64,000 nt of DNA. It comes from Candidatus Sericytochromatia bacterium. GTDB taxonomy: Bacteria; Cyanobacteriota; Sericytochromatia; S15B-MN24; UBA4093. Below the pieces are notes generated by a model, which ran no database searches, was not told where the DNA came from, and worked only from the letters and a program-made list of their open reading frames with translations. This document shows positions 46,641 through 62,007 of the stretch, piece by piece (the stretch's first letter is position 1; each line of letters begins with the position of its first letter). Location: contig JAKFCT010000029.1 of assembly GCA_036676495.1 (NCBI GenBank), positions 32,001 through 96,000 of the forward strand, read 5' to 3'. The position numbers were made by a program, and so were the translations under genes.

Positions 46641-49600
46641 TCACCCGACCTCCGCCAAGGCCGTGGCGCCGAGGGCATCCAAGAGCCGATCCACAGCCCC
46701 AATCAAGTCCTGGCCGTCGCGGCCCAGGGTGAGCTCCCCTTCGGACCAGTTCCAGCGGGACAGTCCCGGCGTCTTCAAGCTGAGATCCGCCCAGCGCGTG
46801 CGGGGCAGGGAGGTGGAGACCCGGATGAGCTTGGCGTCGGAACGGACCGTGCTCACTCCCACCTCGGTGGCCTTCAGCTTCAGCGCGACCACCCGCAGGA
46901 GGTTCTTGACCGCCGGGGGGGGAGGCCCGAAGCGATCGCGCCAGTCGGCTCCGAGCATGTCCAGCTCCTTGAGGCTGGCGACCACGGCCAGGCGCTTGTA
47001 CTCGTCCATCTTGCGCGCGGGCTCCTCGAACCAGTCGTCGGGAAGGTAAGCCGCCACGTTGAGGTCGATCAAGGCCTCCTCCCGCGCCGTCACCACTTCT
47101 TCGCCCTGGGCCTCCTGCACCGCCTCTTCCAGGAGCTGCATGAAGGTCTCGTAGCCGACGGCCAGCATGTTGCCGCTCTGCTCGGGGCCGAGGATGTTGC
47201 CGACGCCACGGATTTCCATGTCGCGCAGGGCGATCTGGTAGCCGGAGCCGAGGGCCGTGAACTGCTGGAGGGCCTGAAGGCGGTCGCGGGCTTCCTCCGT
47301 GAGCTCCTTGCCCGCCCTGTAGAAGCAGTGGCAGTAGGCTTTCACGTCCGAGCGTCCCACCCGGCCGCGGATCTGGTAGAGCTGCGCCAGGCCCAGGCGG
47401 TCGGCGTCGTCCACGATGATGGTGTTGGCGTTGGGGATGTCCAGGCCCGACTCGATGATGGTGGTGGCCACCAGGACGTCGTACTCGCGGTCAAGGAAGC
47501 TGAGCATGACGTCTTCGAGCTCGTGTTCGTTCATCTGGCCATGGCCCACGACGACCTTGGCCTGGGGGACCAGCTCCTGAATCTCGGCGGCCACCCGGTG
47601 GATCGAGTCGATCCGGTTATGCAGGACGAAGGCCTGGCCGCCGCGCTCCAGCTCGTGCAGGACGGCCGTGCGCAAGATCTCGGGATCGTAGGGGCTGACG
47701 GTGGTCTTGACCGGCTGGCGATCGCGCGGAGGCGTCGTGATCAGGCTCATGTCGCGGGCGCCGGAGAGGGCCAGGTAAAGGGTGCGGGGGATGGGGGTGG
47801 CGCTCATGGTGAGCACGTCGATGCTGGTCTTGAGCTGCTTGAGGCGCTCCTTGTGCGCGACGCCGAAGCGGTGCTCCTCGTCGATGACGACCAGGCCGAG
47901 ATCCTTGAAGGCGACGTCCTTCTGCAGGAGGCGGTGCGTGCCCACCACGATGTCCACTCCGCCGGTCCCGAGGGCGCGGAGGGTCTCCTTCTGCTCCTTC
48001 GCCGTACGGAAGCGGCTCATGAGGCCCAGCTTCACGGGGTAAGGGGCGAAGCGTTCGCGCAGGACCTGGTAGTGCTGGTGGGCGAGCAGGGTGGTGGGGG
48101 CCAGGACGGCGACTTGCTTGCCGCTCATGACGGCCTTGAAGATGCCGCGCAGGGCGACCTCGGTCTTGCCGAAGCCGACGTCGCCGCAAATCAGGCGATC
48201 CATGGGACGCGGGGCCTCCATGTCGCGCTTGACCTCGGTGATGGCCCGGAGCTGGTCCGGGGTCTCGTCGTAGGGGAAGCCTTCCTCCATCTCGGCTTGC
48301 CAGACCGTGTCGGCGGGGTGGGCGAAGCCGGGCTGGGCGGCGCGCTGGGCGTAAAGCTTGAGCAGGTCGAAGGCGAGCTCCTGGACGGCCTTCTTGACGC
48401 GGCTCTTGACGTTGGCCCAGTCGGCACCGCCCATCTTGTTGATGCGCGGCGCGCCGTCGGCGCCGCCGCGGTAGCGGTGCAGGAGGCCGATCTGGTCGAC
48501 CGGGACGTAGAGCTTGTCGTCCCCGCGATAGGAGATGAGCAGGTACTCGCGGGCGAGGCCGTTGACCTCGAGGCGGCGCATGCCCTGGTACTGGCCGATG
48601 CCGTGCTTGGCATGGACGACGTGGTCGCCGACGACGAGCTCTCCGATGGTGGCGATCTGGGCTCCGGCGTGCGTCGGCCGCTTTTCCTTGCGGCCGGGAC
48701 GTTTCTGCCAGCCGAAGAGCTCGTGATCGGTCAGGAGGGTGATGCCGAGGTCGGGCCAGGAGAAGCCGGCGCTGAGGCTCTCGCGGACGATCCAGGTGCC
48801 TCCGTAGGGAGCTCCGGGTTCGGGGAGGCGGCCGCCGTAGGTGGCATGGGCGCCGCGCTCGTCGAGGATGGCGAAGACGCGCTGGGGCTGGACGCTCGCG
48901 ATGACGAGGGTCTCTCCGGCCTTGGCGGCGGCCTTCACCGAGTCGGCCAGGCGGTCGAACTGGTTGCCGAAGGAAAGCGGTGCCGAGGTCTGAAGGGCGA
49001 TCGTCCCGTCGTTGGGGGTGAGGTCCAGCTGCGCGTAGGGGGCGAGGGTGTTCTGCAGTTCGTCCCAGGTGAGGTGGAGCAACTGGGGCAGCTTCGGCAT
49101 GTCGTTGGCGTTGAGGCGCTTGGAGTAGGTGTCTCCGAGCAGCTTGTTCCAGGAGGCGTACTCGCTGGCGAGGGCCTGTTTGTCGGCCCAGATGACGGGA
49201 TACTGGGTCGGGACGTAGTCGAGGAGGGTGCCGAGCCTGCCGAAGAAGGGGGCGTAAAGCTCGCAGCCTTCGAAGTACTGGAAGGAGCCGAGCTGGTCGA
49301 GGGCGGCGTCGACGATCCGCTTGAGCTTGTTGGCCTCTTCGGGGCGGCCGCCGCCGTTGAGCATGTTGACCTTCTCGCGCGTGGCGGCCTTGATGCGCGC
49401 GGCGGCCTCCTCCCAGCCCTCGGCGGGGAGGATCAGCTCACGGGTGGGCCAGAGGCGCAGCGCGTCGAGTTGTTCTTCGGAGCGCTGGGTGGCGGGGTCG
49501 AAGACGCGGATGGCGTCGATCTCGTCGCCGAAGAACTCGATGCGGGCGGGACGATCGCTCTGGGGGGGGAAGACGTCGAGGATGCCGCCGCGGCGGGAAA

Positions 49601-50105
49601 ATTCCCCTTTGTCGGCGACGGCGGGGCTGGGGCGGTAGCCGAGCTTGACGAGCTGCTGGGTGAGGGCGGCGGGGGCGAGGGTGTCGCCGACCGAGAGGGT
49701 GAGGGCAGCGTCCTTCCAGGCCTCGGGGGTGGGGAGGCGCATGGCGATCGCCTTGGGGGTGGTGATGACGCGCTTGGCTTCACCGGAGACCATGGCCGCG
49801 AGGGCGCGCTGGCGCGCATGCAGCAGCTCCTCCTCGGGGGAGACGCCCTGGTAGGGGGGGACCTCGACGGGGAGGAAGGTGACGGCGTCGACTCCGAAGG
49901 CGGCGAGATCGGATTGCCAGCGGCGGGCGGCGTCGGCGCTGGGGGCCACCAGCAGCCAGCCGTCAGCGGGAAGGCCGCCGGCCACGAAGAGGGAGGCCAT
50001 GGGGGTGAGGCCGCCGACCGAGACGGTCTTTCCGGGGGTGAGGGCGTCGGTGAGCCGCGCCGCGTCGGGATGGGCGAGGAGGTGGGCGAAGAGATCCGAA
50101 AGCAT
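46641..50105 (-). CDS. mfd: Transcription-repair coupling factor
   Basis: RGGILDVFP, CarD/RID region (HGIGQY), [40 protein letters not shown] domain. Start may be 50111 or 50126. Confidence 0.97.
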
Positions 50106-50201
50106 GCTCAAGGGGCGTCGATCCATTTTCCAAGAGAATCCGGGCAAAGTGCCAGTTTACCACAGGGGAAAGCGGGGCGCGACGCGCGTCCCGCCGCGGG
50201 C

Positions 50202-51410
50202 TCAGTCCTGGGGGGGATGGGCGCCGAGGGCTCCGAGGGCCTTGGCGATGCGTTCGCGCAGCAGGGGTTCGCGTTCGGCCTGGCGGAAGGCGATCTCGAA
50301 TTCGCGGATGGCTCCGGAGGTGTCTCCGAGGCGCTGGTAGAGGCTGGCGATGCGGAAGTGGAGGTCGGGATCCTCGTAGCCGAGGACGGCGGCGCGCTCG
50401 TACTGGGTGAGGGCCTCGGAGAGGGTGCCGCGTTCCTGCAGGAGGGCGCCGAGCTGGATGAGGGCGGCGCGGTGGCGGGGGTTGAGGCCCAGGGCCTTGC
50501 GGTAGGCGGCGAGGGCTTGATCGGGATCCCGCCGGATCTGGTGGAGCATGCCGAGGCGGTAGGGGAGGTCGGCGTTGGCGGGTTCGAGGGGCATGGCGCG
50601 GCGGTAGTAGCCGATGGCCTCGTCGTAGCGTTCGTCCTTGACGTAGCAGTCGGCCAGGAGGGTGAGGGCGGTGGGGTTGGCGGGGTCGAGGCGGGAGGCT
50701 TCCTTGAGGTTTCGCTCGGCGGCGGGGAGGTTGCCGCGTTTGAGGAGGAGGCTGCCGAGGAGCAGGTAGGCGTGGGCGCTGCTTTCCTTGGCCACGAGCG
50801 CTTCATAGGTGGCCTGGGCTTCGGCGAGGTTGGCGTTTTCCTCGTAGAGGCGGCCGAGCCGCTTGAGGGCGGCGGGGTCGGGGAGGGGTTTGAGGAGGGC
50901 GATGGCGGCGGGGAGGTCTCCGCGGTCCTCGAGGTGCATGGCGCGCTGGAGGGGGTCGCGGGTGGACTGCCAGAGCCACCAGGCGAAGCCGCCTCCGGCG
51001 ACGAGCATGACGGCGAGGAGGATCAGGGCGAGGGTCTTGGGGGGGAGGGGGGGGCGGTGCTTGGGGGGGAACTTGGGTTTGCCGATGGGTTTCTTGCAGC
51101 GGCCGCAGCGGGCGACGAGGAGGCCGGTTTCGGAGCGGACGCGGTTGTAGGTGCCGCACTGGGAGCAGACGGCGACGATGAGGGAGGGCCCGGTGGGGGC
51201 GTGGGGGTTGCGTTGGCGGTCGTAGGCGTCGCGGAGGGCGGGGTCGGAGAGGACGCGATAGGCTTCGGTGAGCAGTTGGGTTTGCTCGGAGTTCCCCCCC
51301 TTGTCGGGGTGGGTGCCGGCCAGTAGTAGGGTCCGGTAGGCCTTCTTGATGATGAGGGGGCTGGCCTTGGGGTGGACCTGCAGGACCTCGTAGTAGTCTG
51401 GCTCGGACAT
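50202..51410 (-). CDS. DnaJ-domain / Zn-ribbon / TM / TPR protein
   Basis: DYYEVL...HPD J domain; CSQC..CGRC; one TM helix; multiple TPRs. Confidence 0.85.
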   Translation of the reverse strand: MSEPDYYEVLQVHPKASPLIIKKAYRTLLLAGTHPDKGGNSEQTQLLTEAYRVLSDPALRDAYDRQRNPHAPTGPSLIVAVCSQCGTYNRVRSETGLLVARCGRCKKPIGKPKFPPKHRPPLPPKTLALILLAVMLVAGGGFAWWLWQSTRDPLQRAMHLEDRGDLPAAIALLKPLPDPAALKRLGRLYEENANLAEAQATYEALVAKESSAHAYLLLGSLLLKRGNLPAAERNLKEASRLDPANPTALTLLADCYVKDERYDEAIGYYRRAMPLEPANADLPYRLGMLHQIRRDPDQALAAYRKALGLNPRHRAALIQLGALLQERGTLSEALTQYERAAVLGYEDPDLHFRIASLYQRLGDTSGAIREFEIAFRQAEREPLLRERIAKALGALGAHPPQD

Positions 51411-51663
51411 GAATCCTTAGCTTAGCTTGGCGGGGGGACAGCCGCTCCAGTATACCCGCTAGGCGTTAAGCTTTCACGCTTGTCTGGCGAGAGGCGGGCA
51501 TCTTCCGGGAAAGGGGCGGCAGGGGCGCGGTTCTCGCGGCAAAACCCCTAGGGCATTTCGTCGTGATTGGCCATGCCTCCCGGGGGCGGCTCCTCCTAGG
51601 ATGGGGGGGATTGGGGGTTGCGGCAGGCCTTTCGCGGCCGGAACTCGAAGGAGGGTGCAACGG

Positions 51664-52071
51664 ATGGAATCGACGCCCCGTCCCATCACGGGATACCCGT
51701 CCCAGCGGCTCGCGCTTCCCTTGGCGACGCTGGGGAAGGGGTTGCAGCGGCTCTTGCGGCCCGCGCGGCTGGCAGTGGTCATGGTGCAGGCGCAAGGCGA
51801 GCAGGCGATCGTCGAGGTGCATGGGGCCCTGGACGTTCGGGGGTCCGAGCGGCTGAAGCGGGCGGTCGCCCTGGCGTTCGAGGAAGGGTCGAGCCAGGTG
51901 ACGATCGAGCTGTCGAAGGCGACGCGGGTCACTCCGGCGGGGGTGGCGGCGTTGGTGGAGGCGAGCGAGCGAGCGGGCGCGGGCGCGGTCCAGCTGGCGG
52001 GGTTGAGTCCGGAGTTCCGCTGGCTCTTGGAGAAGGCGGGCTTGCACATGGTGCTCGAGATCATGGAGTAG
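51664..52071 (+). CDS. STAS-domain (anti-anti-sigma-like) protein
   Basis: VEVHGALD...VTIELSKATRVTPAGVAALV...LAGLSP..RWLLEKAGL; AAGGAGG RBS. Confidence 0.75.
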   Translation: MESTPRPITGYPSQRLALPLATLGKGLQRLLRPARLAVVMVQAQGEQAIVEVHGALDVRGSERLKRAVALAFEEGSSQVTIELSKATRVTPAGVAALVEASERAGAGAVQLAGLSPEFRWLLEKAGLHMVLEIME

Positions 52072-52074
52072 CCG

Positions 52075-53577
52075 ATGAAGGCGATCATTCTGGCGGCCTC
52101 GCCGGGGGGGGCGACGGAGGGCTTCGGCTTCCAGCTCCACGAGGCGCTCTGGCCCTTGCTGGGGCGGCCGTTGATTGATTTGCAGCTGGAGGCCCTGGGC
52201 GAGCTGGGGGCGCGGGAGGTCTGGGTGAGCCTGCGGCATCGGCCGTTCGGGCTGGATCGGCACCTGCAGGGGCGGCATGCGCCTCCGCTGACGGTCGTGC
52301 GCTTGGAGCGGCAGGATCGGGGGCTATTGGGGACGCTCTCGCGGGCGCGCCGCTTCCTGACGGAGACCACCTTGCTCTTGCCGGCGGACATGGTGCCTCC
52401 TGCGGAGCTGGGGGCCTTCCTGGCGGATCACCTGGCCTCGGAGGCCTGGCTGAGCGAGATTCTCGATCCGGCGGGGAACGCCTGCTACCTGGTGGAGCCG
52501 GCGCTCCTGGCGTTGCTGGGGACGGAAGGAGAGCTTTGCCCGGAGGTGCTGGCGGCGGCGGGGCATCCCGTGCGGAGCGTGCTTCACCCGGGCCTGGCCC
52601 GGCTGGGGACGCCGGGGGGCCTTCTTGCGGCGCATGCCCAGGCGTTGCAGCGGGGCTACGTGGATGCGACGGCGAAGGTGCATCCGGCCGCGCGGGTGGC
52701 CGAGCGGGTTTGGATCGGGCCGGGCTGCCGCGTGGAGCGCGAGGCCAAGCTTTCAGAGGGCACGGTCCTCATGGAAGGGGTGCGGGTGGAGCGGGGGGCG
52801 ACGCTCTCCGGGGTCGTGGTGCTGCCGCATGTGCGGGTCGGCAAGGCTTCGAGCTTCCAGCAGGCGATCCTGACTCCCGAGGGGAGTTTCACGGCCGGGG
52901 GCTTCACGCCGGAGCCGGACGCGGAGGTGCTGGGATCGGCGCGGCAGGCGAGCTGGGGGGAGCGCGGGCATCAGGGGCTGGACATGGTGCTGGCGGGCCT
53001 GGCGCTCCTGGTGCTGGCACCGCTGCTGCTCGTCCTGGCCGTGATCATCCGGCTGGACTCACCGGGGCCGATCTTCTACTCGCAGCTGCGGGTGGGGCAG
53101 GATCGGCGCGGCAAGCTGCGCGGCCGGGTCTTCGAGCTTTACAAGTTCCGGACCATGCACGTGGACGCGGACGCGCGGCTGGCGGAGCTGAAGGCCCAGA
53201 ACGCGTACGGATCGGGGCCGTTCTTCAAGCTGGAGCATGATCCGCGGATCACGCGGGCGGGGGCGTTCCTGCGCAAGACCAGCCTGGACGAGCTGCCGCA
53301 ACTCTTGAACGTCCTGCGGGGGGATATGCGGTTGGTGGGGAACCGGCCGTTGCCGGTCTACGAGGCGGCGGAGCTGGCCGAGGAGTGGCAGCGCATGCGC
53401 TTCAACTGTCCGGCAGGGATCACGGGGCTCTGGCAGATCAGCGGGAGATCGGATCTGAGCGAGCACGAGCGCATGGTGCTGGACACGGTTTACGCGGTGA
53501 CGCGGAATTTCTGGACGGACTGGCTCATCTTGCTCAAGACCTTGCCGGCGCTGCTGTTGCGGAGGGGGGCACGCTAG
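52075..53577 (+). CDS. Priming sugar transferase fused to degenerate nucleotidyltransferase and left-handed beta-helix domains
   Basis: MKAIILAA...PLLGRPLI; hexapeptide region; [45 protein letters not shown]. Confidence 0.9.
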
Positions 53578-53610
53578 CTCTGGGAAACGTCGGGTGAAGA
53601 AGGAGGAAGC

Positions 53611-54381
53611 ATGATCCGCAAGACGCTGATGGCGCTGGCCCTGGGTTTCCCTTTGCTCGGCGCCCCGATGCTCAGTGCAGAGGCCTGGGCGGCAGAGCGG
53701 GTGATCATTCCCACGCCGCCGGCGAACCTGTCGCTGGAGGAGGCGCTGGCGCGGGCGATGCGCGAGAGTCCCGAGGTGAAGGTGGCCGAGTCGGAGCTGG
53801 CGCGGGCGCAGGCCGAGGCAGGCAGCCAGGCACTTTGGCCGCTGCGCTCATTGACGGCGAACGTCTCGATCGTGCGCCAGCTGGACGGCTCGGGGCTGGG
53901 GCTGGCTCCGGGGCAGACTCCCGGGGCGATCGGCTTCGGGGGGCCGACGGCGGGGGCGTATCTCAACCTGAACGTCGGGGAGCTGATCGGCGGGGCGTTC
54001 ATGATGCGGGCGGCCCATGCCCGGATGGTGACGGCCGAGGAGAATTTGCGGCTGGTCAAGCTGCAGGTGGCGACCGGGGTGACGGAGGCCTACGCGGCGT
54101 GGAGCGCCCAGAAGAAGCTCATGGCGCTGCGCCAGGAAGCGATCAAGGCTTCCCAAAGCGACGTGGTGGTGCTGGAGCGGCTCTTCGGGCGCGGGGGGGC
54201 GAACATCAACGACCTCCTGAAGGCCCGGCTGGCAGTCAGCCAGTCCCAGGTGGATCTGCTGACGGCCGAGGGGGAGTACAACCGGGCCTGGACGACCTTG
54301 CTGCAACGCATGGGCCAGTCGGCCTGGCTGGAGCCCCAACGCCAGGCGCCTACGGGAACCGTGAAAAAAGGAGCGCGCTAA
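53611..54381 (+). CDS. Short TolC-family outer-membrane efflux protein
   Basis: Signal peptide; LSLEEALARA; a single OEP-like repeat of amphipathic helices. Confidence 0.75.
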   Translation: MIRKTLMALALGFPLLGAPMLSAEAWAAERVIIPTPPANLSLEEALARAMRESPEVKVAESELARAQAEAGSQALWPLRSLTANVSIVRQLDGSGLGLAPGQTPGAIGFGGPTAGAYLNLNVGELIGGAFMMRAAHARMVTAEENLRLVKLQVATGVTEAYAAWSAQKKLMALRQEAIKASQSDVVVLERLFGRGGANINDLLKARLAVSQSQVDLLTAEGEYNRAWTTLLQRMGQSAWLEPQRQAPTGTVKKGAR

Positions 54382-54384
54382 CTC

Positions 54385-56073
54385 ATGAAGCAGCCTGAAA
54401 AGCGGGCTCTTGAGCGTTTCGAGGCCCACCTTCCCCTCTTGAAGCACCTGGTGGCCCGGGCCCTGGCAACCGGCGGGGGCACCGCGCGTTCCCTGGTCTA
54501 CGCGGGAGCCCATGGGTTGTGGCAAGCGGCCGTGGACTTCGGGGACGGAGCGTTCGGGGAGGCCGCCGAGGTGGCGGTGACGAGCGCGTTGCTCGATCAC
54601 TTGCACTTCGGGACCGCCAAGCCGCTGCCGGAAGCGCTCTCGGGCCTGACTCCGAAGCTGGACGCGATGGCCGCGCAACTGCAGGCCGAGCAACCTCCCC
54701 AGGCGCTGGCGACCTACGGGGCCCTCATGCGGCGCCCCAACACGTTGCCGATGCCCGAAGAGGAGTTCCCGGTCCTGGTCAACGGGTCCGAGGGGGCCTT
54801 GCTGTCGGCGATCGCCAACCTCTTCCGGCGCCACTGGCCCTTGATGGTGGCGATCGCCCTGGTCACGGAGGTCGCCGTCTTCGCGATGGTCAAGACCGCC
54901 CCCAAGACCTACAAGGCCGAAACCACGGTCAACACCGGGATCGCCTCGGGGATCTCGGCCACCGGCGCGCCGATCGACTGGTTCAAGGCCGGCGCCCTCA
55001 TGGGCAACCTCACGGAGATCCTGCTGAGCCGGGCGGTGCTCGACCGAACGCTCAAGGCGATGAACTGGGATCTCCCGGCCGAGAAGCTGGCCAAGCGCCT
55101 CGAGGTCGAGCGGGTGAACCAGACCGACCTCCTGAAGATCTCGGCCACGGCCCTCTCGGCCGAAGAGGCGAGCGAACTCGCGAACGTCCACGTGCGGGAG
55201 TTCATGGCTTACTACTCCGGCATGACGGGCCGAGATGCCGGCAAGACCAACCAGTTCATCTCCGAGCAGGCCCAAGAAGCCGAGAGCCGCTTGCGCACGG
55301 CCGAGGAGCGGCTGCGCCGCTTCAAGGCGGAGGCCTTGCCGGAAGCCCAGCTCGCGCTTTCCGAGCAGCTGGCGGATACGCGGCGGCTGCGCGACGAGAC
55401 CCAGCAGCTGATCGCCGCCGCCCAGTCGGGCCTCAGCATGGTGGAGTCCGAGTTGAAGCGCCTGAAGGCCGATCCGGGGCTGGCCGCGACCGTCATGATG
55501 AGCCCGGAGGTGGACGCGGCCGGCGAACGGCTGAAGTCCCTTAAAGAAAACCTGGCGGACGCCCGCAGCGTCCTGGGCTCGAACCATCCCTCGGTCAAGG
55601 AGCTGGAGGCCCAGATTGCCAAGGCCTCGGGCCAGTTGAACGTCACGACCCGCCGGGTGGCGGGAGGCGAGGAGGGCATGGCCGACGTGATCGCCCGACG
55701 GATTGCCCTGAAGGTGGAGCTCGCCCAGAACCAGGCCAAGCTCGCGGCGATCGACAGCACCTTGCGGGAGCTCGAGCCCAAGGTGAAGTCGGCGTCCTCG
55801 GAGCAGGTGACCCTCGCGCAGCTGCAGCGGGAAGTCGAGATCGCGGCCGCGGACTACCAGCGCCTGAGTCAGCGCGCCGGGGAGACCCGGGTGGCGGCCT
55901 CGGGGGCGGCGACCCTGCCCTTGACCATCATCGACCCGGCCATTCCTCCCAGCCGCCCCGAGAGCCAGAAGCTTCCGGTCAAATTGGCCCTGGGCCTCAT
56001 CGTGAGCCTGCTCTTCGGGGGAGTGATCGGCTACCTCCTCGAATTGCGGAGGAAGCCCGAGCCCGAGGTGTAA
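54385..56073 (+). CDS. GumC/Wzc-type polysaccharide co-polymerase with N-terminal sigma-70 region-2-like domain, no kinase domain
   Basis: TM1 then PKTYKAET, long coiled coil (NHPSV), IIDPA.PP..P and TM2. Residues ~10-75 resemble FliA-type region 2. Confidence 0.8.
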   Translation: MKQPEKRALERFEAHLPLLKHLVARALATGGGTARSLVYAGAHGLWQAAVDFGDGAFGEAAEVAVTSALLDHLHFGTAKPLPEALSGLTPKLDAMAAQLQAEQPPQALATYGALMRRPNTLPMPEEEFPVLVNGSEGALLSAIANLFRRHWPLMVAIALVTEVAVFAMVKTAPKTYKAETTVNTGIASGISATGAPIDWFKAGALMGNLTEILLSRAVLDRTLKAMNWDLPAEKLAKRLEVERVNQTDLLKISATALSAEEASELANVHVREFMAYYSGMTGRDAGKTNQFISEQAQEAESRLRTAEERLRRFKAEALPEAQLALSEQLADTRRLRDETQQLIAAAQSGLSMVESELKRLKADPGLAATVMMSPEVDAAGERLKSLKENLADARSVLGSNHPSVKELEAQIAKASGQLNVTTRRVAGGEEGMADVIARRIALKVELAQNQAKLAAIDSTLRELEPKVKSASSEQVTLAQLQREVEIAAADYQRLSQRAGETRVAASGAATLPLTIIDPAIPPSRPESQKLPVKLALGLIVSLLFGGVIGYLLELRRKPEPEV

Positions 56074-56074
56074 G

Positions 56075-57751
56075 ATGGCCCTGCGCGCGCGCGGTTCCGA
56101 TCTCGGCCCCCAGGGGGGCGGCCCCCCGGGGGGCGGACCCCAGCGGGGCGGAGCCCGGGGCGATCGTCAGCGGCCCTTCGGGTTTCAGCCGGACTGGCTG
56201 AAGCCGCTGCTGCTACCGCTCCTCTGGGCCCTGCCCTTCCTCCTGGCGGTCGCCCACGCGGTGGCCGACTTCCAGCGCCTGCAGATCGTGCTGCTCGCGG
56301 TGGCGCCCCTGGCCCTGGTGGTCTTCCTCAACATCGAGTTCGGCCTCTACACGGTCCTGGGCTACGCCACCGTCGTGATCTTCATCAAGCGCCTGATGCC
56401 CAACCTGGACTCCAACCAGATGGGCGTCGTCCTGGACGGGCTCATCTGCCTGATGGCCCTGCGGCTCGCGCTCGACCTCCTGCGGACGAAGCGCTGGGGA
56501 GCGTTCAAGTCTCCCTTGACCCTGCCGGTCATCGCGCTGGCCGGCTACCTGCTCTTGCAGGTCTTCAACCCCTCGGCGCCGGGCCTCAAGTTCGGCATCT
56601 ACGGCAGCCGGGATACCCTGCGCTTCCTGGGCTTCTTCCTGGTGCTTTTCTACATGCGCGCGACCCCCAAGATCAAGCGCTTCATGCAGGTCTTCCTCTT
56701 CCTGATGGTGGGGGATGCCCTCTACGGGATCTGGCAGCACCACCACGGCCTGCTCTACCAGGAGCACCAGTGGCTGCTCGAGTCCAAGGCCTACCGGACC
56801 CACGTCCTGAAGGGCTACGTGCGGGTCTTCGGGACGGTCGGGGACGCGGCCACCTTCGGCTTCATCAACATCACCGCGGCCCTGCTCCTGATCGGCCTCG
56901 CCCTGACCTCCAAGGGCTGGAAGCTCTGGGCCTTGCTGGGCCTGACCATGCCGTGCCTGTACGCGATGGTGCTTTCGTACTCGCGCGGCCCCATGGTGGC
57001 CGTGGTGGCGGGCGTGGGCGTGATGCTGCTGGTGAGCCGGAACTGGAAGCTCGCCATGGCCTGCGTGGTGGCCGGGGGGCTCGGGCTGGGCGCCCTGGCC
57101 CTCAACGGCGACACGCGGCTCTTCGACCGCCTCATGACGGCGACCAACCCGGTGGAGGACGCCTCCTTCCAGGTGCGCATGGGCTACATCGACACGTACA
57201 TGCCGCTCATCTTCGAGCGCCCCTTCGGCGGAGGGCTCTACACGGCAGGCGCCTCGGGGCTGTCCATCACCGGCGGCGAGCCCATCCCGGGCACCACCAT
57301 CGGAGTGCCCACCGATAACCTCTACTTCAAGTACGGCCTGGAGCTGGGCTGGGTGGGGCTCGCGATCTTCTTCTGGTTCCTGGCCTCCATCTGGGTGGTG
57401 ACGCTGCGCAGCTACTTCGCGCTAAAAGATCCGTTCCTCAAGGCGACCGCGCTGGGCCTGCTGGGCGTCTTCAGCTGCTACATCGTGGGCGCCTTCTCCA
57501 ACGACATCCTGGTCCAGAAGCCGCTCACCGAGTTCTTCTACATGGCCGTCGGGCTCTCGGCGCTCCTGAGCCAGCACCGGGACGCCGTGTCGGCGTCGCC
57601 GGCCCGCGCTTTGCCTTCGGGCCCGAGGCCCATGGGGCTCTTGGAGCCAGGCCCCTCGACCACTTCCGGGAACGGACCCCAAAGGGGCGGACCCCAGCCG
57701 GACGGGTCCCCGCGGACGGGCCGCCGGGACAAGAAGGGAAGACCGGGATGA
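56075..57751 (+). CDS. O-antigen ligase / Wzy polymerase family protein
   Basis: About 12 TM helices; RVFGT, SYSRG, TDNLY...ELGWVG motifs. Confidence 0.85.
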   Translation: MALRARGSDLGPQGGGPPGGGPQRGGARGDRQRPFGFQPDWLKPLLLPLLWALPFLLAVAHAVADFQRLQIVLLAVAPLALVVFLNIEFGLYTVLGYATVVIFIKRLMPNLDSNQMGVVLDGLICLMALRLALDLLRTKRWGAFKSPLTLPVIALAGYLLLQVFNPSAPGLKFGIYGSRDTLRFLGFFLVLFYMRATPKIKRFMQVFLFLMVGDALYGIWQHHHGLLYQEHQWLLESKAYRTHVLKGYVRVFGTVGDAATFGFINITAALLLIGLALTSKGWKLWALLGLTMPCLYAMVLSYSRGPMVAVVAGVGVMLLVSRNWKLAMACVVAGGLGLGALALNGDTRLFDRLMTATNPVEDASFQVRMGYIDTYMPLIFERPFGGGLYTAGASGLSITGGEPIPGTTIGVPTDNLYFKYGLELGWVGLAIFFWFLASIWVVTLRSYFALKDPFLKATALGLLGVFSCYIVGAFSNDILVQKPLTEFFYMAVGLSALLSQHRDAVSASPARALPSGPRPMGLLEPGPSTTSGNGPQRGGPQPDGSPRTGRRDKKGRPG

Positions 57752-58926
57752 GAATCACCCTGATCGCCTCGGACGAGTCGACCGCTCCCCTGTACCGCGT
57801 GCGCCTCCTGGCACGGGTGCTGGCCCGGCGCTTCGAGGTGGAGGTGCTGGGCTACCACTTCGACCCCGCCGAGCTCGACCCGCGCGCCCCGCGGGACTTC
57901 CCTTACCGGGCCGTTGCAGCCCGTCCGCTCCCGGGCTTCCTGGAAGACGCCCGCAAGCTGGCCTCCATGGTGAGCGGGGACGTGCTCTACGCCATGAAGC
58001 CGCGCCCGACCTCCTTCGGCACGGCCCTCGCACTCGCGCGGCGGCGCGGGATCCCCCTGGTCGTGGACGTGGACGACTGGGAACCCACCATGATCCACCC
58101 CTACTCCCGGCATGCCCTCAAGAACGCCGCCTACGCCCTGCCCCGGCTGAGACATCCCAACAACTACCTCTTCACGGCCGCCTTCGACCGCTTGATCGGC
58201 CTGGCCGACGGCGTCACGACGGTCTCGCGCTTCTTCCAGGAGCGCTACCGCCGCGGCGCGCAGCCCTTCGTCCTGGCTCCTCAGTACGTGGACACCGTGC
58301 GCTTCGATCCCGCCCGTTACGATCGCGAGGCCTTGCGCCGGGAACTGGGCTGCGCAGGCTTCACGCTGGTCTTTGCGGGCATCGCCCAGCCCAACAAGGG
58401 GGTGGGAGAGATCCTCGAGGCGCTCAGGCGGTTGCCGGATCGCCCCTGGGAGCTGCTGATCGTGGGTCCCAAGACGCCCTATGCGCTCTCGCTGGCCGAA
58501 CAGGAGCCTCGCGTGAGGCTCTTGGGCACTCAGCCTCCCGAAGAGACGCCCAAATACCTGGCCCTGGCGGACGCGGTGGCCCTTCCGCAGCGCGCCGAGC
58601 CCGCCTCCCTGGGGCAGATGCCGATGAAGCTCTTCGAGGCGATGGCCATGGGCTGTCCGGTGGTCTCGACGCGGCTGGCGGACATCCCGGAGGTGCTGGA
58701 CGGCTGCGGCATGGTGGTTTCACCGGGGGATCCGGCGGCCCTGGCCGAAGCCCTGGCGGCGCTCATGACCCATCCCGCGCAGGCCCGGCAGCTCGGAGAG
58801 GCCGCCCGCCGGAAGGTGCTCTCGGCGTATAGCTACGATCGGGGCGCCCAGGTGCTCGGGGACCTGATGATGGAGGTGGCGGGGCGTTCCGGCGTTCCGC
58901 GGACCGAAAGAGAGGCGTCATGCTGA
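57748..58926 (+). CDS. Glycosyltransferase family 4
   Basis: PNKG, PMKLFEAMAMGCPVV, GT-B fold motifs. Confidence 0.9.
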   Translation: MRITLIASDESTAPLYRVRLLARVLARRFEVEVLGYHFDPAELDPRAPRDFPYRAVAARPLPGFLEDARKLASMVSGDVLYAMKPRPTSFGTALALARRRGIPLVVDVDDWEPTMIHPYSRHALKNAAYALPRLRHPNNYLFTAAFDRLIGLADGVTTVSRFFQERYRRGAQPFVLAPQYVDTVRFDPARYDREALRRELGCAGFTLVFAGIAQPNKGVGEILEALRRLPDRPWELLIVGPKTPYALSLAEQEPRVRLLGTQPPEETPKYLALADAVALPQRAEPASLGQMPMKLFEAMAMGCPVVSTRLADIPEVLDGCGMVVSPGDPAALAEALAALMTHPAQARQLGEAARRKVLSAYSYDRGAQVLGDLMMEVAGRSGVPRTEREASC

Positions 58927-60173
58927 CGAATGAGCAGATCATCTGCCTGTCGATCACGCCCTGGGAGACCCATCTGCCGAGCTCGGGGCATTACCTCATG
59001 CGGGAGTTCGCCCGGCGAAACCGGGTGCTCTTCGTGGATCGCCCCTTGAGCGTGAAGGATCTCTGGACGCATCGGCAGAACCCCGAGATGGCCGCGCGGC
59101 TGGCGCGGACGCTGCGCCGGGAGAACCCCTTGCGATCCTGGGGGATCGCGGGGCTGGACGGCTGGGTGCTCACGCCTCCCCCCACCCTGCCCATCAACGG
59201 CCTGGACTCCGGGGCCCTCTACGAGAGCGGCTTCGTGGCCAATTCCCAGGTGCTGCGCCACAGCGTCCGCTGGGCCATGGACGCGCTGGAGATGGAGGAG
59301 CCGATCCTCTGGATCTCGTTCGAGCTTCCCATGGGGGCGGGCCTGCTGGGGACGCTGGGGGAATGCCTGAGCGTCTACCATTGCTTCGACGAGGTGCTCG
59401 GAGAGCCGTACCTGGCCCGCCATGGGCGAGAGCTCGAGGGGATTCTCTTCGAGCGCGCCGACCTGGTCTTCGCGAGCTCGCGCAAGCTGGCTCGGGACCG
59501 GGAGGCGATCCGGCCGGATATCCAGTTCGTGCCGAACGGCGTGGACTTCGCGTCCTATCACCGGGCCGCCGACCCCAAGCTCGCCATCCCCGACGAGTTG
59601 CGGGCGATCCCCCGACCTCGGATCGGCTACCTGGGCAATCTCGAGGCAAGGGTGGATTACGCGCTGATCGAGCGGGTGGCGCTGACGCGTCCGGACTGGT
59701 CGATCGTGCTGGTGGGGCCCAGCGAGGGCTACTGGAGAGAGAAGCTGGCCATCTTGGAGAAGCTCTCCAACGTCTACTGGCTGGGCAAGCGAGCGCCGGG
59801 GGAGGCGCCGGCGATCCTGAAGGCCTTCGATGCGGCGATCATCCCGTTCGTGCGATCGCCGCAGACCGAGGCCATCTATCCGCTCAAGCTCAACGAGTAC
59901 CTGGCGGCCGGCAAATCGGTGGTGATGACCCCGTTCGCCGACCTGCGGGAGTTCCAGAACGTGGCCTGGATCGCCCCGGATGCCGCGTCCTTCATCGGTG
60001 CCCTGGAGGAGGCGATCCTCCCGGTGGATCCCGGCATGCTCCGCATGCGCTGGCGCGTCGCGCAGGAAAATGACTGGCGCGACCGGGCGACGGTCATCGC
60101 CCAGGTGCTGGCGCAGCGGTTGAGCGCGCGTCCTCCGAGGCGCCGGCTCGCAGGAAGGAGGAATCTCGCATGA
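58920..60173 (+). CDS. GT-B glycosyltransferase (TuaH-like)
   Basis: VYHCFDE, VPNGVD, PRIGYLG, PLKLNEYLAAG motifs. Confidence 0.88.
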   Translation: MLTNEQIICLSITPWETHLPSSGHYLMREFARRNRVLFVDRPLSVKDLWTHRQNPEMAARLARTLRRENPLRSWGIAGLDGWVLTPPPTLPINGLDSGALYESGFVANSQVLRHSVRWAMDALEMEEPILWISFELPMGAGLLGTLGECLSVYHCFDEVLGEPYLARHGRELEGILFERADLVFASSRKLARDREAIRPDIQFVPNGVDFASYHRAADPKLAIPDELRAIPRPRIGYLGNLEARVDYALIERVALTRPDWSIVLVGPSEGYWREKLAILEKLSNVYWLGKRAPGEAPAILKAFDAAIIPFVRSPQTEAIYPLKLNEYLAAGKSVVMTPFADLREFQNVAWIAPDAASFIGALEEAILPVDPGMLRMRWRVAQENDWRDRATVIAQVLAQRLSARPPRRRLAGRRNLA

Positions 60174-61036
60174 GCGCTCCCGTCCTCGACATCATCATCG
60201 TGAACTGGAACACCCGGGACCTGCTCTCCCGGACCCTCGACTGCGTCGAGGCCACGGTCTGCACGCCCCATACCTGCTGGGTGGTCGACAACGGCTCGTC
60301 CGACGACTCCGTCGCGCACGTCCGGGAGCGCTTCCCATGGGTGCAGATCATCGCCAACTCCGACAACCTGGGCTTCGCGGCCGCCAACAACCAGGCCATC
60401 CTCGAGGCGCGCGGGCGGTACGCGCTCCTCTTGAACTCGGATACCGAGGTGCAGCCGGGGGCGATCGACCGGCTGATCCAGTACATGGATGCCAACCCGG
60501 AAGTCGGACTTTGCGGCCCCAAGCTGCTCAACGCCGATCGCAGCCTGCAGCCTTCCGCGCGCAACTTCTACAGCACCTTCGGATCGCTCATCGAGAACAA
60601 GCTGATCGCGCAGTTCTGGAAGACGCCCCGCTCCCAGACCCGCTTCCTCAGCTACTGGGACCATTCGTACACCCGTCCGGTGGACTGGGTGACCGGGGCC
60701 TGCATGCTCGCACGGATGGACACGATTCGCCGGGTCGGCCTTCTCGATACCGCCTTCTTCATGTACGGCGAGGAGATCGACTGGCAAATGCGCATGCAGA
60801 AGGCCGGCTACCCGATCCACTTCGTGCATGACGCCGAGGTCATCCATCTGGGAGGCGGCTCCTCGCAGCAGGCCTTCCAGAAGATGCGGCGCCAAGAGTA
60901 CCTGAGCCGCCAGATCCTGATCGACAAGCACTACCCGCCCCATACCCGGGCCGTCTTCCGGGTCAAGACCGCTGTGGGCATCGGCTTCTGGAAGGCGCTG
61001 GCCACCCTCTCCGGGAAGAAGCTGGAGCAGGTTTAG
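60170..61036 (+). CDS. Glycosyltransferase family 2
   Basis: IIVNWN, VVDNGSSD, NLGFAAANN, LLNSD, GACML, FFMYGEEID motifs. Confidence 0.93.
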   Translation: MSAPVLDIIIVNWNTRDLLSRTLDCVEATVCTPHTCWVVDNGSSDDSVAHVRERFPWVQIIANSDNLGFAAANNQAILEARGRYALLLNSDTEVQPGAIDRLIQYMDANPEVGLCGPKLLNADRSLQPSARNFYSTFGSLIENKLIAQFWKTPRSQTRFLSYWDHSYTRPVDWVTGACMLARMDTIRRVGLLDTAFFMYGEEIDWQMRMQKAGYPIHFVHDAEVIHLGGGSSQQAFQKMRRQEYLSRQILIDKHYPPHTRAVFRVKTAVGIGFWKALATLSGKKLEQV

Positions 61037-61149
61037 ATTAAATTTTGATTAAATCGATCACGGGGCCAGCATTAACGCGAATTTAACGCCCGATGAGACG
61101 CATGTGGACCTGAGCCTCGGTTCGGGACCCCACGCTTTCCCTTTGTCGT

Positions 61150-61193
61150 GTGTGACGGCGCCCCCAGTCTCTGGGGGCGCCGTCGCGCGTTTG
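61150..61193. terminator. Strong terminator hairpin
   Basis: GTGACGGCGCCCCCAG-TCT-CTGGGGGCGCCGTCGC stem followed by GTTT. Confidence 0.7.
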
Positions 61194-61241
61194 GCTCCCG
61201 CGCAGGCAGAGACGCGCAGGCAGGGACGCCTGCGCCACTGA

Positions 61242-61940
61242 TCAGGGCAGGTCGAAGAGCAGGACTTCGCCGGAATCGGGGGTCTCCAGCCGGAGCTGCT
61301 CCTCGTCGACGAGCTGGGCGCCGTCTCCCGCCGCCATGGGCTGACCGTTCAAGAGGACGTTGCCGCGGGCCACGTGGAGGTAGGCCTTCCGGCCGGGCGT
61401 CAGGGGCTGCGAGAGGCTCTCCCCGGCCTGGAGGAGGGCGATGGAGAGGCGGGCGTCCTGGTGAATCGTGACCGAGCCGTCGCGACCGTCGGGCGAGGCG
61501 ACGAGGCGCAGCTTGCCGCGCTTGGAGGCCTCGGGGAAGGTCTTCTGCTCGTAGCTGGGAGGCAGTCCCTTCCGGTCGGGAAGGATCCAGATCTGGAAGA
61601 AGTGGACCGGGTGATCGGGAGAGGGGTTGAACTCGCTGTGCCGCACGCCGGTGCCGGCGCTCATGCGCTGGACGTCGCCGGGCCGGATGACCGAGGTATT
61701 GCCCATGGAGTCCCGGTGCTGGAGTTCGCCGTCGAGGACGACGGAGACGATTTCCATGTCGGCGTGGGGGTGGGTTCCGAAGCCCATGCCGGGGGCGACG
61801 GTGTCGTCGTTGAGGACGCGCAGCACCGAGAAGCCCATGTGGCGGGGGTCGAAGTAGTCCGCGAAGGAAAAGGTGTGATAGGTGTCGAGCCAGCCATGAT
61901 GGGCATGGCCGCGCTCATGGCTGGGGCGCAGGGTGATCAT
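61242..61940 (-). CDS. Pirin family protein (YhhW-like)
   Basis: [50 protein letters not shown] motifs. Confidence 0.94.
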
Positions 61941-61971
61941 GAGGGACCTCCGGGTTGAAGCCGCCAAAAAG

Positions 61972-62007
61972 AGTTCTAATTAGAACTAATTTCTTTTTAG
62001 CTGTCAA
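61972..62007 (-). promoter_or_regulatory. Pirin promoter with overlapping 16-bp palindromic operator
   Basis: Minus strand TTGACA-N17-TCTAAT; the perfect palindrome AGTTCTAATTAGAACT (61972-61987) covers the -10. Confidence 0.7.

Follow-up and report, generated by a model that had tools for sequence, protein, structure and literature searches.

The polysaccharide co-polymerase (PCP) considered here, from a Candidatus Sericytochromatia bacterium, begins with a domain, referred to below as sigma2N, whose homology to sigma-70 regions 1.2-2.4 and the region 3.0 helix is distant but statistically supported. The gene was analysed in a window of 64,000 nucleotides, i.e., the whole stretch of DNA under study. 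Tentatively, and with somewhat less than even confidence, we interpret sigma2N as a genuine, strongly diverged sigma domain 2 that was exapted as a protein-docking module on a kinase-less PCP.

The combination of sigma domain 2 with a PCP was described nowhere that we found: a full-text search of the literature, with subscription journals and supplements outside its coverage, returned no description of a sigma-like domain on a PCP. Sigma domains do occur in fusions, as in ECF sigmas extended at the C- or N-terminus (PMC8103513).

Results

Homology to sigma domain 2

The original prediction had proposed a region-2-like domain at the PCP N-terminus from the spacing of residues, and the similarity has turned out to be homology rather than a mere pattern. 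A profile made from the alignment of 15 orthologous N-termini was compared with 177,635 PDB sequences and matched FliA (E 4.1e-6) and SigA (1.4e-5, 1.6e-5 and 3.1e-5), with sigma factors accounting for 58/60 of the matches listed. Among 1.84 billion representatives the same profile had 471 matches at E<=1e-3, and Pfam Sigma70_r2 was found on 85 of the 86 non-family matches scanned (86 of the 140 listed). Within the 24,442 six-frame ORFs of the bacterium's own genome it matched only the PCP and six sigma-factor-like ORFs (E 7e-9 to 2e-3), the top scorers being SigF/B-like ORFs on contigs C30, C102 and C88. Compared with Pfam, the PCP sequence alone gives no match in sigma2N, and Sigma70_r2 is touched by 7/15 family members (best E 0.0017).

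The domain is modelled as five helices (residues 3-14, 16-28, 34-51, 57-75 and 83-102) with pLDDT >88 for residues 1-100. Usable fold scores came from VIA-align, by which 48,161 PDB chains were compared without Foldseek. The AlphaFold model of sigma2N fits sigma domain 2 with Z 10.4-11.0 and rmsd 1.2-1.9 A over 70-75 residues, and every one of the 15 chains reaching Z>=8 is sigma domain 2; one of these is an engineered scaffold whose residue range equals that of the Taq SigA entries. The top matches are the SigE N-terminal domain (Z 10.7, rmsd 1.9 A, 75 residues) and residues 372-446 of E. coli sigma70 (Z 10.4, rmsd 1.2 A, 70 residues). Foldseek alone gave E of only 0.05-0.9, yet 50/50 of its listed matches are sigma factors; a search of the ESM Atlas for look-alikes of PCP residues 1-115 returned no usable match.

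The fold and sequence homology thus covers regions 1.2-2.4 and the 3.0 helix, with group-3 FliA and SigF/SigB nearest, and the motifs FE-x-H-LPLL, G-x-x-x-L-x-x-A, G-x-F-x-x-(Y)A and LP-x-x-L are common to both sides. In a tree of 105 sigma-2 sequences (101 columns), 14/15 family members form one clade, and L017, which has diverged furthest, joins two sigma factors on a long branch (support 0.73); the signal is too small to name the donor sigma group from these sequences.

Gene, start and reading frame

The PCP ORF occupies 54385-56073 (+), starts with the ATG at 54385 and encodes 562 amino acids. It contains the peptide quoted in the original prediction, where the domain was placed at 54385-54620 (residues 1-79); the homologous domain goes beyond this to about residue 105 (about 54699) and takes in the region 3.0 helix. 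Other features are collected in Table 1.

Table 1. Features of the co-polymerase gene and its neighbourhood (positions are those of the window)
Feature	Position	Strand	Description and basis
DnaJ / zinc-finger / TM / TPR protein, divergent	50202-51410	-	Pfam; conserved beside the operon
STAS protein, first gene of the operon	51664-52071	+	Pfam STAS_2 8.5e-10; orthologue alignments
Phosphoglycosyl transferase	52075-53577	+	NTP_transf_3, left-handed beta-helix domain, Bac_transf 3.8e-56; two genes 5' of the PCP
Half-size TolC-like outer-membrane protein	53611-54381	+	256 aa, one OEP repeat; PF02321 2.9e-20; TIGR01844 210-399 of 414
Ribosome-binding motif GGAG	54370-54373	+	11 nt 5' of the PCP ATG; read from the sequence
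sigma2N	54385-54699	+	Residues 1-105; sigma-70 regions 1.2-2.4 and region 3.0 helix; sequence profiles, models, alignment with the genome's own sigma factors
Pro-rich linker	54700-54792	+	Residues 106-136, predicted disordered; pLDDT 35-54 in both models
Juxtamembrane helix (137-149) and TM1 (151-171)	54793-54897	+	Weak Wzz match starts at residue 142
Periplasmic PCP body	54898-55971	+	Residues 172-529; alpha/beta base, long helical hairpins; TIGR matches, Foldseek
End of GNVR region, TM2 (530-555), 7-residue cytoplasmic tail, stop codon	55972-56073	+	No kinase domain
Wzy_C/O-antigen-ligase-like polymerase	56075-57751	+	Wzy_C 1.3e-13; ATG 1 nt past the PCP stop codon
Three glycosyltransferase genes with overlapping ends	57748-61036	+	GT4 57748-58926; GT4-like 58920-60173; GT2 60170-61036

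The OEP-like gene upstream ends with its stop codon at 54379-54381, just 5' of the PCP ATG, so that the two genes are tightly coupled. Translation is assigned to this upstream start rather than to MRRPN or MPEEE further downstream: besides the GGAG 11 nt 5' of the ATG, a GGAG/GAGG-type motif is found at most 25 nt from the PCP start in 16/16 orthologues, the N-terminus is conserved among them, and dN/dS is 0.10-0.54 for residues 1-110, compared with 0.13-0.55 for the PCP body (8 pairs). As far as sequence comparison can show it, sigma2N is translated and under purifying selection.

A wrong start codon, a frameshift or a chimeric assembly could in principle have produced the fusion; nothing was found in favour of such an artefact, and we consider it already refuted, with practically no probability left to it. 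The single frame is open and free of stops in 17 genomes, the start context is conserved across orthologues, the domain is under the purifying selection just described, and the junction of the upstream gene with the domain is bridged by contigs of two studies. One of them, an identical 1540-nt contig of run X1 (possibly the source run of the assembly), covers 53865-55404; the other, which is 692 nt long and belongs to a related strain of a separate study (run X2), covers 54104-54792. Runs X3 and X4 gave short, diverged pieces only, and none of the runs listed as holding the locus is an RNA run.

The co-polymerase and its distribution

The original assignment of the protein as a PCP that lacks a kinase domain is supported. 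The PCP body matches TIGR03007 (2e-29) and TIGR03017 (8.6e-22), both below the cut-off and the former far below it, and by Foldseek resembles Wzc (8.4e-11), KpsE (1.1e-5) and WzzE (1.3e-4). Wzz (PF02706, 20.5 bits against a cut-off of 25.5) and GNVR (PF13807, 25.3 against 27.7) stay below gathering in the window PCP; its orthologues carry precomputed PF13807 and/or PF02706. The model has the order TM1, alpha/beta base with long helical hairpins, TM2. Databases label the family only as 'uncharacterized protein involved in exopolysaccharide biosynthesis', 'hypothetical' or 'Wzz/FepE/Etk N-terminal domain-containing'. Two transmembrane segments, the alpha/beta base and long periplasmic helices are common to this protein and the known PCPs (Wzz, Wzc, KpsE, GumC and the PEP-CTERM TIGR03007 type), as is a gene position beside a Wzy-like polymerase and a phosphoglycosyl transferase; the window PCP differs from them by an N-terminal cytoplasmic extension of about 136 residues with the sigma fold.

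By homology with Wzc and Wzz, sigma2N, being placed before TM1, is cytoplasmic, in agreement with the original prediction. The full-length model has pLDDT 81.9 but pTM of only 0.39, although the domains themselves are confident; together with the linker, where residues 106-137 have pLDDT below 50, this suggests that sigma2N is an independent tethered module. In the linker, Tyr111 is conserved in most family members and Pro129 is invariant.

Wzc (PCP-2a) has a C-terminal BY-kinase (tyrosine-kinase) domain, which the window PCP lacks, and the ORFs of the operon that were scanned include no separate BY-kinase gene. The earlier suggestion that sigma2N stands in place of the missing kinase holds insofar as the kinase is absent; the correspondence is loose, since sigma2N is N-terminal and the Wzc kinase C-terminal. 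The same genome encodes a separate Wzc-like PCP paralogue with a kinase-like domain on contig C98, the only place with a kinase-like match, and the kinase-less state is therefore specific to the sigma2N-PCP machine.

The fusion is not confined to one assembly. PCP orthologues spanning the N-terminus were found in 17/41 related Candidatus Sericytochromatia genomes, always in the same operon (f1 9/10, own genome included; f2 1/1; f3 7/8). All 17 have sigma2N, down to 34% whole-protein identity, while identity within the sigma2N family falls to 26-30%. Library clusters matching the sigma2N profile at E<=1e-10 are in 10/10 cases PCPs of 555-602 aa or fragments. No outgroup PCP without the extension was found, all 26 matches of the PCP body at E<=1e-10 being family members of 560-605 aa. 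In the bacterium's own genome the fusion is present on this PCP only. The organisms with the sigma2N-PCP are uncultured soil Sericytochromatia.

Residues changed relative to sigma factors

Residues were counted in the PCP family and in a sigma set, with positions numbered on the window protein; the family set consists of 36 sequences of one order, some of them near-duplicates of genome-derived ones, and because these sequences are kin the counts overstate independence. The roles of the sigma positions (core binding, melting, -10 recognition) are those we take to follow from the work on E. coli sigma70.

In region 2.2 an acidic residue occurs at R35 in 0/36 family members vs 68/83 sigma factors and at S36 in 10/36 vs 83/85, i.e., the E/D-D pair of the sigmas is replaced by R/L followed by P/D/A; Gln at Y39 is found in 1/36 vs 53/85. 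The conserved polar residues of this region (E/D-D-L-x-Q), presumably the core-binding ones, are thus mostly replaced in the family. The aromatic and basic residues of regions 2.3/2.4, presumably responsible for melting and -10 recognition, are not kept either, and the predicted loss of promoter-melting and recognition residues is largely borne out: an aromatic residue at A60 is present in 18/36 vs 81/84, a basic one at H74 in 3/34 vs 68/84 and at E83 in 0/34 vs 60/77. A basic residue at D51 is found in 3/35 family members vs 64/84 sigmas, and 24/35 of the family are acidic there. Two acidic residues are specific to the family, E59 (29/36 vs 0/84) and E62 (31/36 vs 1/84). The hydrophobic core of the sigma fold is kept, and Gly41 and Leu45 are conserved in the PCP family and in sigmas alike.

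Region 4, whose absence had been stated earlier, is indeed missing: Sigma70_r3, r4 and r4_2 have no match at E<=1 in the 562-aa PCP, and everything beyond residue 105 is linker and PCP. Members of the sigma-70 family possess regions 3.1-4 and the core-binding, melting and -10 residues, whereas sigma2N lacks them and is fused to a bitopic membrane protein. Because these residues are replaced, several with reversal of charge, and region 4 is missing, sigma2N is not a sigma factor.

The same counts bear on the possibility that sigma2N binds the beta-prime clamp helices and holds RNA polymerase at the export machine, or competes there with sigmas, so that transcription of the operon would be coupled to a membrane site. 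The helix that in sigma factors contacts beta-prime is intact in fold (rmsd 1.2-1.9 A) and retains its conserved Gly41 and Leu45. However, polar residues near-universal in sigmas have been exchanged where region 2.2 begins (the E/D-D pair; Gln in 1/36 vs 53/85), and a single domain without region 4 or 3.2 would be expected to bind weakly; we regard this as very improbable. The original statement that region 2 binds RNA polymerase is weakened for sigma2N accordingly, since the canonical core-binding residues of region 2.2 are replaced, while the likeness to region 2 itself stands.

The conserved positions of the family belong mostly to the core of the sigma fold, and the surface varies apart from R11, E59 and E62; therefore no clearly conserved interface is visible, and a mere spacer would show the same. 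It is accordingly conceivable that a sigma fragment was captured once and is now a folded spacer or stabiliser without a specific partner, which also agrees with family identity as low as 26-30%. We consider such a vestigial passenger quite unlikely: the domain is present in all 17 orthologues even at 34% whole-protein identity, its dN/dS (0.10-0.54) is like that of the PCP body, and it conserves E59 and E62 at positions practically devoid of acidic residues in sigmas (0/84 and 1/84).

Operon and STAS protein

The tight operon STAS-PGT-OEP-PCP-Wzy-GT-GT2 is conserved in 12/12 relatives' loci, a Wzy-type polymerase and an initiating phosphoglycosyl transferase being encoded together with the PCP in each of them; an OEP match is found in 11/12, and STAS in 11/11 of the loci that reach its place. 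The divergent DnaJ-TPR gene adjoins the operon in 10/12, the other two loci ending at contig ends. In the window the start of the STAS gene was set at the conserved MESTP (135 aa) and not at the listed ATG 51601; the N-terminus of the TolC-like protein resembles a signal peptide. A promoter and terminator scan of 51300-54500 revealed no promoter for the operon and one promoter-like site on the minus strand, directed towards the DnaJ-TPR gene; Rfam gave nothing at E<=0.1 in 50000-62000.

According to the original prediction, the STAS protein could form a partner-switching circuit with the sigma-like domain; the data do not support this. At the phospho-serine column, which we take to be the position known from SpoIIAA, Ser is present in 1/12 operon STAS proteins, the others having P, A or G and the window protein lacking it; no HATPase_c_2 kinase of the RsbW type and no PP2C were found among the operon ORFs scanned. 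In one relative (G015, L028:7673-8722) a single ORF combines STAS (37-128) with Bac_transf (147-344), whereas in the window STAS and the transferase are separate adjacent genes 3 nt apart. This fusion has the All4160/XssP architecture and suggests that STAS acts on the transferase. A complex prediction for residues 1-115 with the operon STAS, run without controls, returned 'no answer' (score 0.00) and speaks neither for nor against binding.

SypA of Vibrio fischeri, a STAS domain at the top of an EPS pathway, reportedly targets the biosynthetic machine and not a sigma factor. For the cyanobacterial STAS-glycosyltransferase proteins All4160, All2285 and XssP, STAS action on the EPS machine and not on a sigma factor is described in 10.64898/2026.04.08.717354. 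The window STAS differs from the All4160/XssP type in being a separate gene and in lacking the phospho-serine. As in those proteins and in SypA, STAS stands at the head of an EPS pathway in the window operon; no sigma-like domain on a PCP is reported for those systems, as far as the accessible part of the source goes, and the window has one.

Without the STAS protein, the original idea would take the form of a membrane-tethered sigma decoy: sigma2N would bind an anti-sigma factor (RsbW/SpoIIAB-like, FlgM-like or other) or another regulator that binds domain 2, and how active a real group-3 sigma is would then depend on the state or abundance of the export machine. By sequence, sigma2N comes closest to sigmas of group-3 type (FliA at the top in PDB, SigF/B-like ORFs on C30, C102 and C88 in the own genome), the domain includes regions 2.1 and 3.0, reportedly contacts of this anti-sigma class, and the genome has three strong RsbW-like genes (contigs C41, C53 and C69). 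Each of these kinase genes, however, is located elsewhere beside a STAS gene of its own, and no anti-sigma gene was found within the operon or next to it when the window and the 12 relatives' loci were searched with the window genes as probes. Furthermore, the operon STAS is non-phosphorylatable in 11/12 copies and fused to the transferase in one genome, and the sigma surface residues are widely replaced in sigma2N. Thus we think a decoy unlikely.

Discussion

We believe that the exapted docking module accounts best for these observations. A sigma domain 2 was fused to the cytoplasmic N-terminus of the PCP in an ancestor of one Candidatus Sericytochromatia order and has been retained since then under purifying selection. 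It probably hangs beneath the membrane on a flexible tether of about 30 residues and may function in docking or assembly within the Wzy-dependent export machine. Its candidate partners would be adjacent protomers in the PCP ring or else a cytoplasmic component of the machine, such as the sugar transferase together with its STAS regulator, or the glycosyltransferases. Sigma2N may thereby have taken over the organising role of the Wzc-type cytoplasmic kinase ring.

The protein partners of sigma domain 2 include RNA polymerase beta-prime, anti-sigma factors, Crl, RbpA and GcrA, and a transcription-linked role of sigma2N is therefore conceivable. That sigma2N is a working sigma mimic, capturing an anti-sigma factor or RNA polymerase such that assembly or activity of the machine feeds back on sigma-dependent transcription, seems to us doubtful, though worth keeping in mind.

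Domain 2 can exist as a separate unit, as illustrated by partial sigmas, namely the two-part SigO-RsoA of Bacillus and gp55 of T4. These proteins, as well as the ECF fusions, remain transcription factors and keep or recruit the function of region 4. Unlike all of these, sigma2N sits on a subunit of an export machine, and no region-4 partner is encoded in its operon.

A transcription module, sigma domain 2, has thus been recruited without its DNA- and core-contact residues onto a polysaccharide export subunit, and an order of non-photosynthetic cyanobacteria has retained it throughout its history. Direct regulation of polysaccharide enzymes by STAS, and not via sigma factors, is an emerging theme in Anabaena, Synechocystis and Vibrio fischeri, to which this operon adds a further example. 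Should sigma2N still bind RNA polymerase or an anti-sigma factor, it would represent a new coupling of envelope assembly to gene expression; as a sigma mimic it would make a checkpoint like FlgM/FliA in which a co-polymerase carries the decoy sigma domain. A docking module would show how the cytoplasmic side of a co-polymerase can be organised without a kinase, and would be a clean natural case of sigma-fold exaptation.

The N-terminal domain of the co-polymerase

The N-terminus of the polysaccharide co-polymerase (PCP; residues 1-105, hereafter sigma2N) is homologous to domain 2 of sigma factors, in line with the region-2 resemblance that the original prediction had proposed from the sequence. 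We regard this homology as established because the sequence and structure statistics agree.

Residues 1-152 taken alone matched no Pfam family. Orthologues were gathered from related genomes, and 15 N-termini were aligned into a profile. Searched against all PDB sequences, it found FliA at E 4.1e-6, three cyanobacterial SigA chains at 1.4e-5 to 3.1e-5, SigB at 2.9e-4 and sigma-K at 3.9e-4; sigma factors make up 58 of the 60 PDB matches listed, and the alignments span sigma regions 2.1 to 2.4, followed by the LP-x-x-L helix of region 3.0. In scans of single members, Pfam Sigma70_r2 was matched by 7 of the 15, with a best E of 0.0017. A search of 1.84 billion representatives with the profile yielded 471 proteins at E<=1e-3; ten of these reach E<=1e-10, and they are the sigma2N-PCP family itself. 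Of the 140 further hits listed, 86 were scanned with Pfam; Sigma70_r2 is present in 85 of them, Sigma70_r4 in 58 and Sigma70_r3 in 57. The search of the window's own genome (24,442 ORFs in six frames, minimum length 80 aa) returned the PCP itself at 3e-50 and six further ORFs (7e-9 to 2e-3), which by their sequence read as ordinary sigma factors; nothing else matched in this set. Both in the library at E<=1e-10 and in the own genome, sigma2N is found on this PCP only.

AlphaFold models residues 1-150 with five helices and with pLDDT >88 over residues 1-100. The best 50 rows of Foldseek contain only sigma factors, yet at E of just 0.05-0.9; VIA-align on this list gave the N-terminal domain of SigE (Z 11.0, rmsd 1.7 A over 75 residues), E. 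coli sigma70 369-446 (Z 10.9, 1.4 A over 75) and FliA (Z 10.7). In a Foldseek-independent search of 48,161 chains, all 15 that reached Z>=8 are sigma domain 2, including an engineered scaffold that covers the residue range of Taq SigA; a terpene synthase (Z 7.9, rmsd 3.3 A) is the highest-ranking unrelated fold. By the program's own warning, structural similarity between helical bundles is sufficient by itself only at a Z of about 13.

A side observation concerns the nearest sigma factors: in 12 of the 86, regions 2-4 are followed by a C-terminal HicB (antitoxin-like) domain (for example, P0023, P0024, P0027, P0030, P0032, P0034, P0046, P0047 and P0102 of the library).

Residues kept and lost

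The 86 sigma hits and 36 family sequences were aligned to the same profile; of the latter, which are related to one another and partly redundant, 15 come from genomes and 21 from protein libraries. The family retains the core positions L16, P17, L18, G41, L45, A48, F/W52, G55, F57, A61, L/I69, P82, L85, L92 and L99. Seven positions that we take, following work on E. coli sigma70, to be functional surfaces differ, and E59 with E62 forms a conserved acidic pair specific to the family.

Positions at which the sigma set and the PCP family differ
Position	Property	Sigma set	Family
R35	acidic	68/83	0/36 (basic 23/36)
S36	acidic	83/85	10/36
Y39	Gln	53/85	1/36
D51	basic	64/84	3/35 (acidic 24/35)
E59	acidic	0/84	29/36
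A60	aromatic	81/84	18/36
E62	acidic	1/84	31/36
H74	basic	68/84	3/34
E83	basic	60/77	0/34

Aromatic and basic residues for promoter melting and recognition are largely lost (A60, H74 and E83), in line with the prediction made for the melting aromatics; the predicted lack of region 4 also holds, since the Pfam scan of the 562-aa PCP found no regions 3.1-4. Sigma2N therefore has a sigma fold without the sigma working surfaces. We rejected the PCP as a sigma factor on the same grounds, and we consider it very unlikely that sigma2N binds RNA polymerase.

The protein, its start and its operon

The body of the protein is a polysaccharide co-polymerase. Its Wzz (residues 142-224) and GNVR (473-548) matches are weak, just below the Pfam gathering scores, and those to the chain-length determinant TIGR03007 (2e-29) and to TIGR03017 (8.6e-22) are under their cut-offs. 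The full-length AlphaFold model (mean pLDDT 81.9) places an alpha/beta base and long helical hairpins between TM1 (151-171) and TM2 (530-555); its Foldseek matches are Wzc (E 8.4e-11), KpsE and WzzE. Only 7 residues follow TM2, so the kinase domain is absent. The same genome has a conventional Wzc-like PCP on another contig (C98:4220-6217, minus strand; one 1042-aa open frame), with a kinase-like match to TIGR01007 (8e-26, under the cut-off).

The PCP gene is the fourth in a tight operon.

Genes of the operon in the window
Feature	Coordinates	Strand	Remarks
STAS	51664-52071	+	
Phosphoglycosyl transferase	52075-53577	+	N-terminal nucleotidyl-transferase / beta-helix part
TolC-like protein	53611-54381	+	half-size
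PCP	54385-56073	+	562 aa; sigma-like stretch at its start
Wzy-like polymerase	56075-57751	+	
Three glycosyltransferases	57748-61036	+	

The start ATG 54385 lies 3 nt after the preceding stop codon and has GGAG 11 nt before it; GGAG/GAGG precedes the corresponding start in 16/16 complete orthologues. Of the 41 genomes searched, 17 have an orthologue that includes the N-terminus (9/10 in the own family, 1/1 and 7/8 in two further families of the order, 0/8 in a fourth, 0/14 in other families of the class), so the fusion is not a one-off; in the relative G021 the contig ends within the gene. Eleven further genomes match through Wzc-like paralogues only, and these are similar to the PCP body. Sigma2N is under selection: in eight pairs dN/dS is 0.10-0.54 for residues 1-110 vs 0.13-0.55 for the PCP body. 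An identical 1540-nt public contig covers 53865-55404 (run X1, perhaps the source sample), and one of 692 nt, which belongs to a related strain in a separate study, covers 54104-54792. The start motif, orthologue coverage, dN/dS and bridging contigs show that MRRPN or MPEEE, named as possible downstream starts, is not the start. That the fusion is an artefact deserves practically no credence, given these contigs, the conserved start motif and a dN/dS like that of the PCP body.

Several observations are made in passing. Run X1 also has a second, ~12% diverged version of the same genes (window 53865-56086; records 3 and 6), therefore two related strains coexist in that sample. Some public MAG records with the Sericytochromatia-type operon are labelled as the oxygenic cyanobacterial genera Stenomitos and Pantanalinema (L041; P0174, P0176); in the search this same contig (G006) is assigned to the family of the window, and these may be labelling conflicts. 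The TolC-like protein (256 aa) has one OEP repeat, half a TolC (TIGR01844 positions 210-399 of 414), and no Poly_export/Wza-like or Wzx-like match was found among the operon ORFs scanned with Pfam. The transferase consists of NTP_transf_3 and a left-handed beta-helix (GlmU-like), then a membrane helix, then Bac_transf; in the relative G004 the matches are limited to the beta-helix part and Bac_transf. The order Mfd, divergent DnaJ/zinc-finger/TM/TPR protein, EPS operon is kept across families of the order (window 46641-51410; L019, L020, L021, L024); DnaJ-TPR adjoins the operon in 10/12 loci and Mfd in 4.

Discussion

A partner-switching circuit with the operon STAS protein, as originally proposed, finds no support. 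STAS heads the operon in the window and in 11/11 relatives' loci reaching that place; Ser occupies the canonical phospho-site column, which we assign by the SpoIIAA position, in 1/12 operon copies, and no RsbW-type kinase is found among the operon ORFs. The genome has three strong RsbW-like genes on other contigs, each adjoining its own STAS gene. In the relative G015 (L028:7673-8722) STAS (residues 37-128) and the Bac_transf sugar transferase (147-344) form a single ORF, STAS standing in place of the nucleotidyl-transferase / beta-helix part of the window's transferase; in the window the two genes (51664-53577) are adjacent, 3 nt apart. This fusion has the architecture of All4160, All2285 and XssP, whose STAS domain is argued in a 2026 preprint to regulate the polysaccharide enzyme directly, not via a sigma factor (10.64898/2026.04.08.717354). 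The economical reading is that the operon STAS belongs to the transferase rather than to sigma2N. That sigma2N binds an anti-sigma factor as a decoy seems unlikely to us.

Homology of PCP topology places sigma2N in the cytoplasm. Its tether is disordered and about 30 residues long (pLDDT <50 for 106-137; full-length pTM 0.39). In the linker (residues 106-136; 54700-54792), which otherwise varies, all 15 aligned members have Pro129 and most have Tyr111; several also have an acidic-aromatic patch, EEF, ahead of Pro129. This may act as a short motif for docking or modification. We tentatively presume, at somewhat less than even chances, that sigma2N serves the export machine as a module for protein-protein docking or assembly. 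It may stand in for the missing kinase ring as an organiser, with neighbouring protomers, or cytoplasmic parts of the transferase, STAS and glycosyltransferase set, as putative partners. The main weakness of the docking reading is that the conserved positions are mostly fold-core and the partner is putative. A vestigial spacer would also keep such a core; considering the selection on sigma2N, we find it quite improbable. The rest of our credence goes to explanations beyond those named here.

Databases label the family as 'uncharacterized protein involved in exopolysaccharide biosynthesis', 'hypothetical protein' or 'Wzz/FepE/Etk N-terminal domain-containing protein', and our full-text literature search brought up no paper that describes a PCP with a sigma-like domain. 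Sigma domain 2 and the PCP are each well known; their combination appears to be undescribed, as does the exaptation of sigma domain 2 outside transcription.
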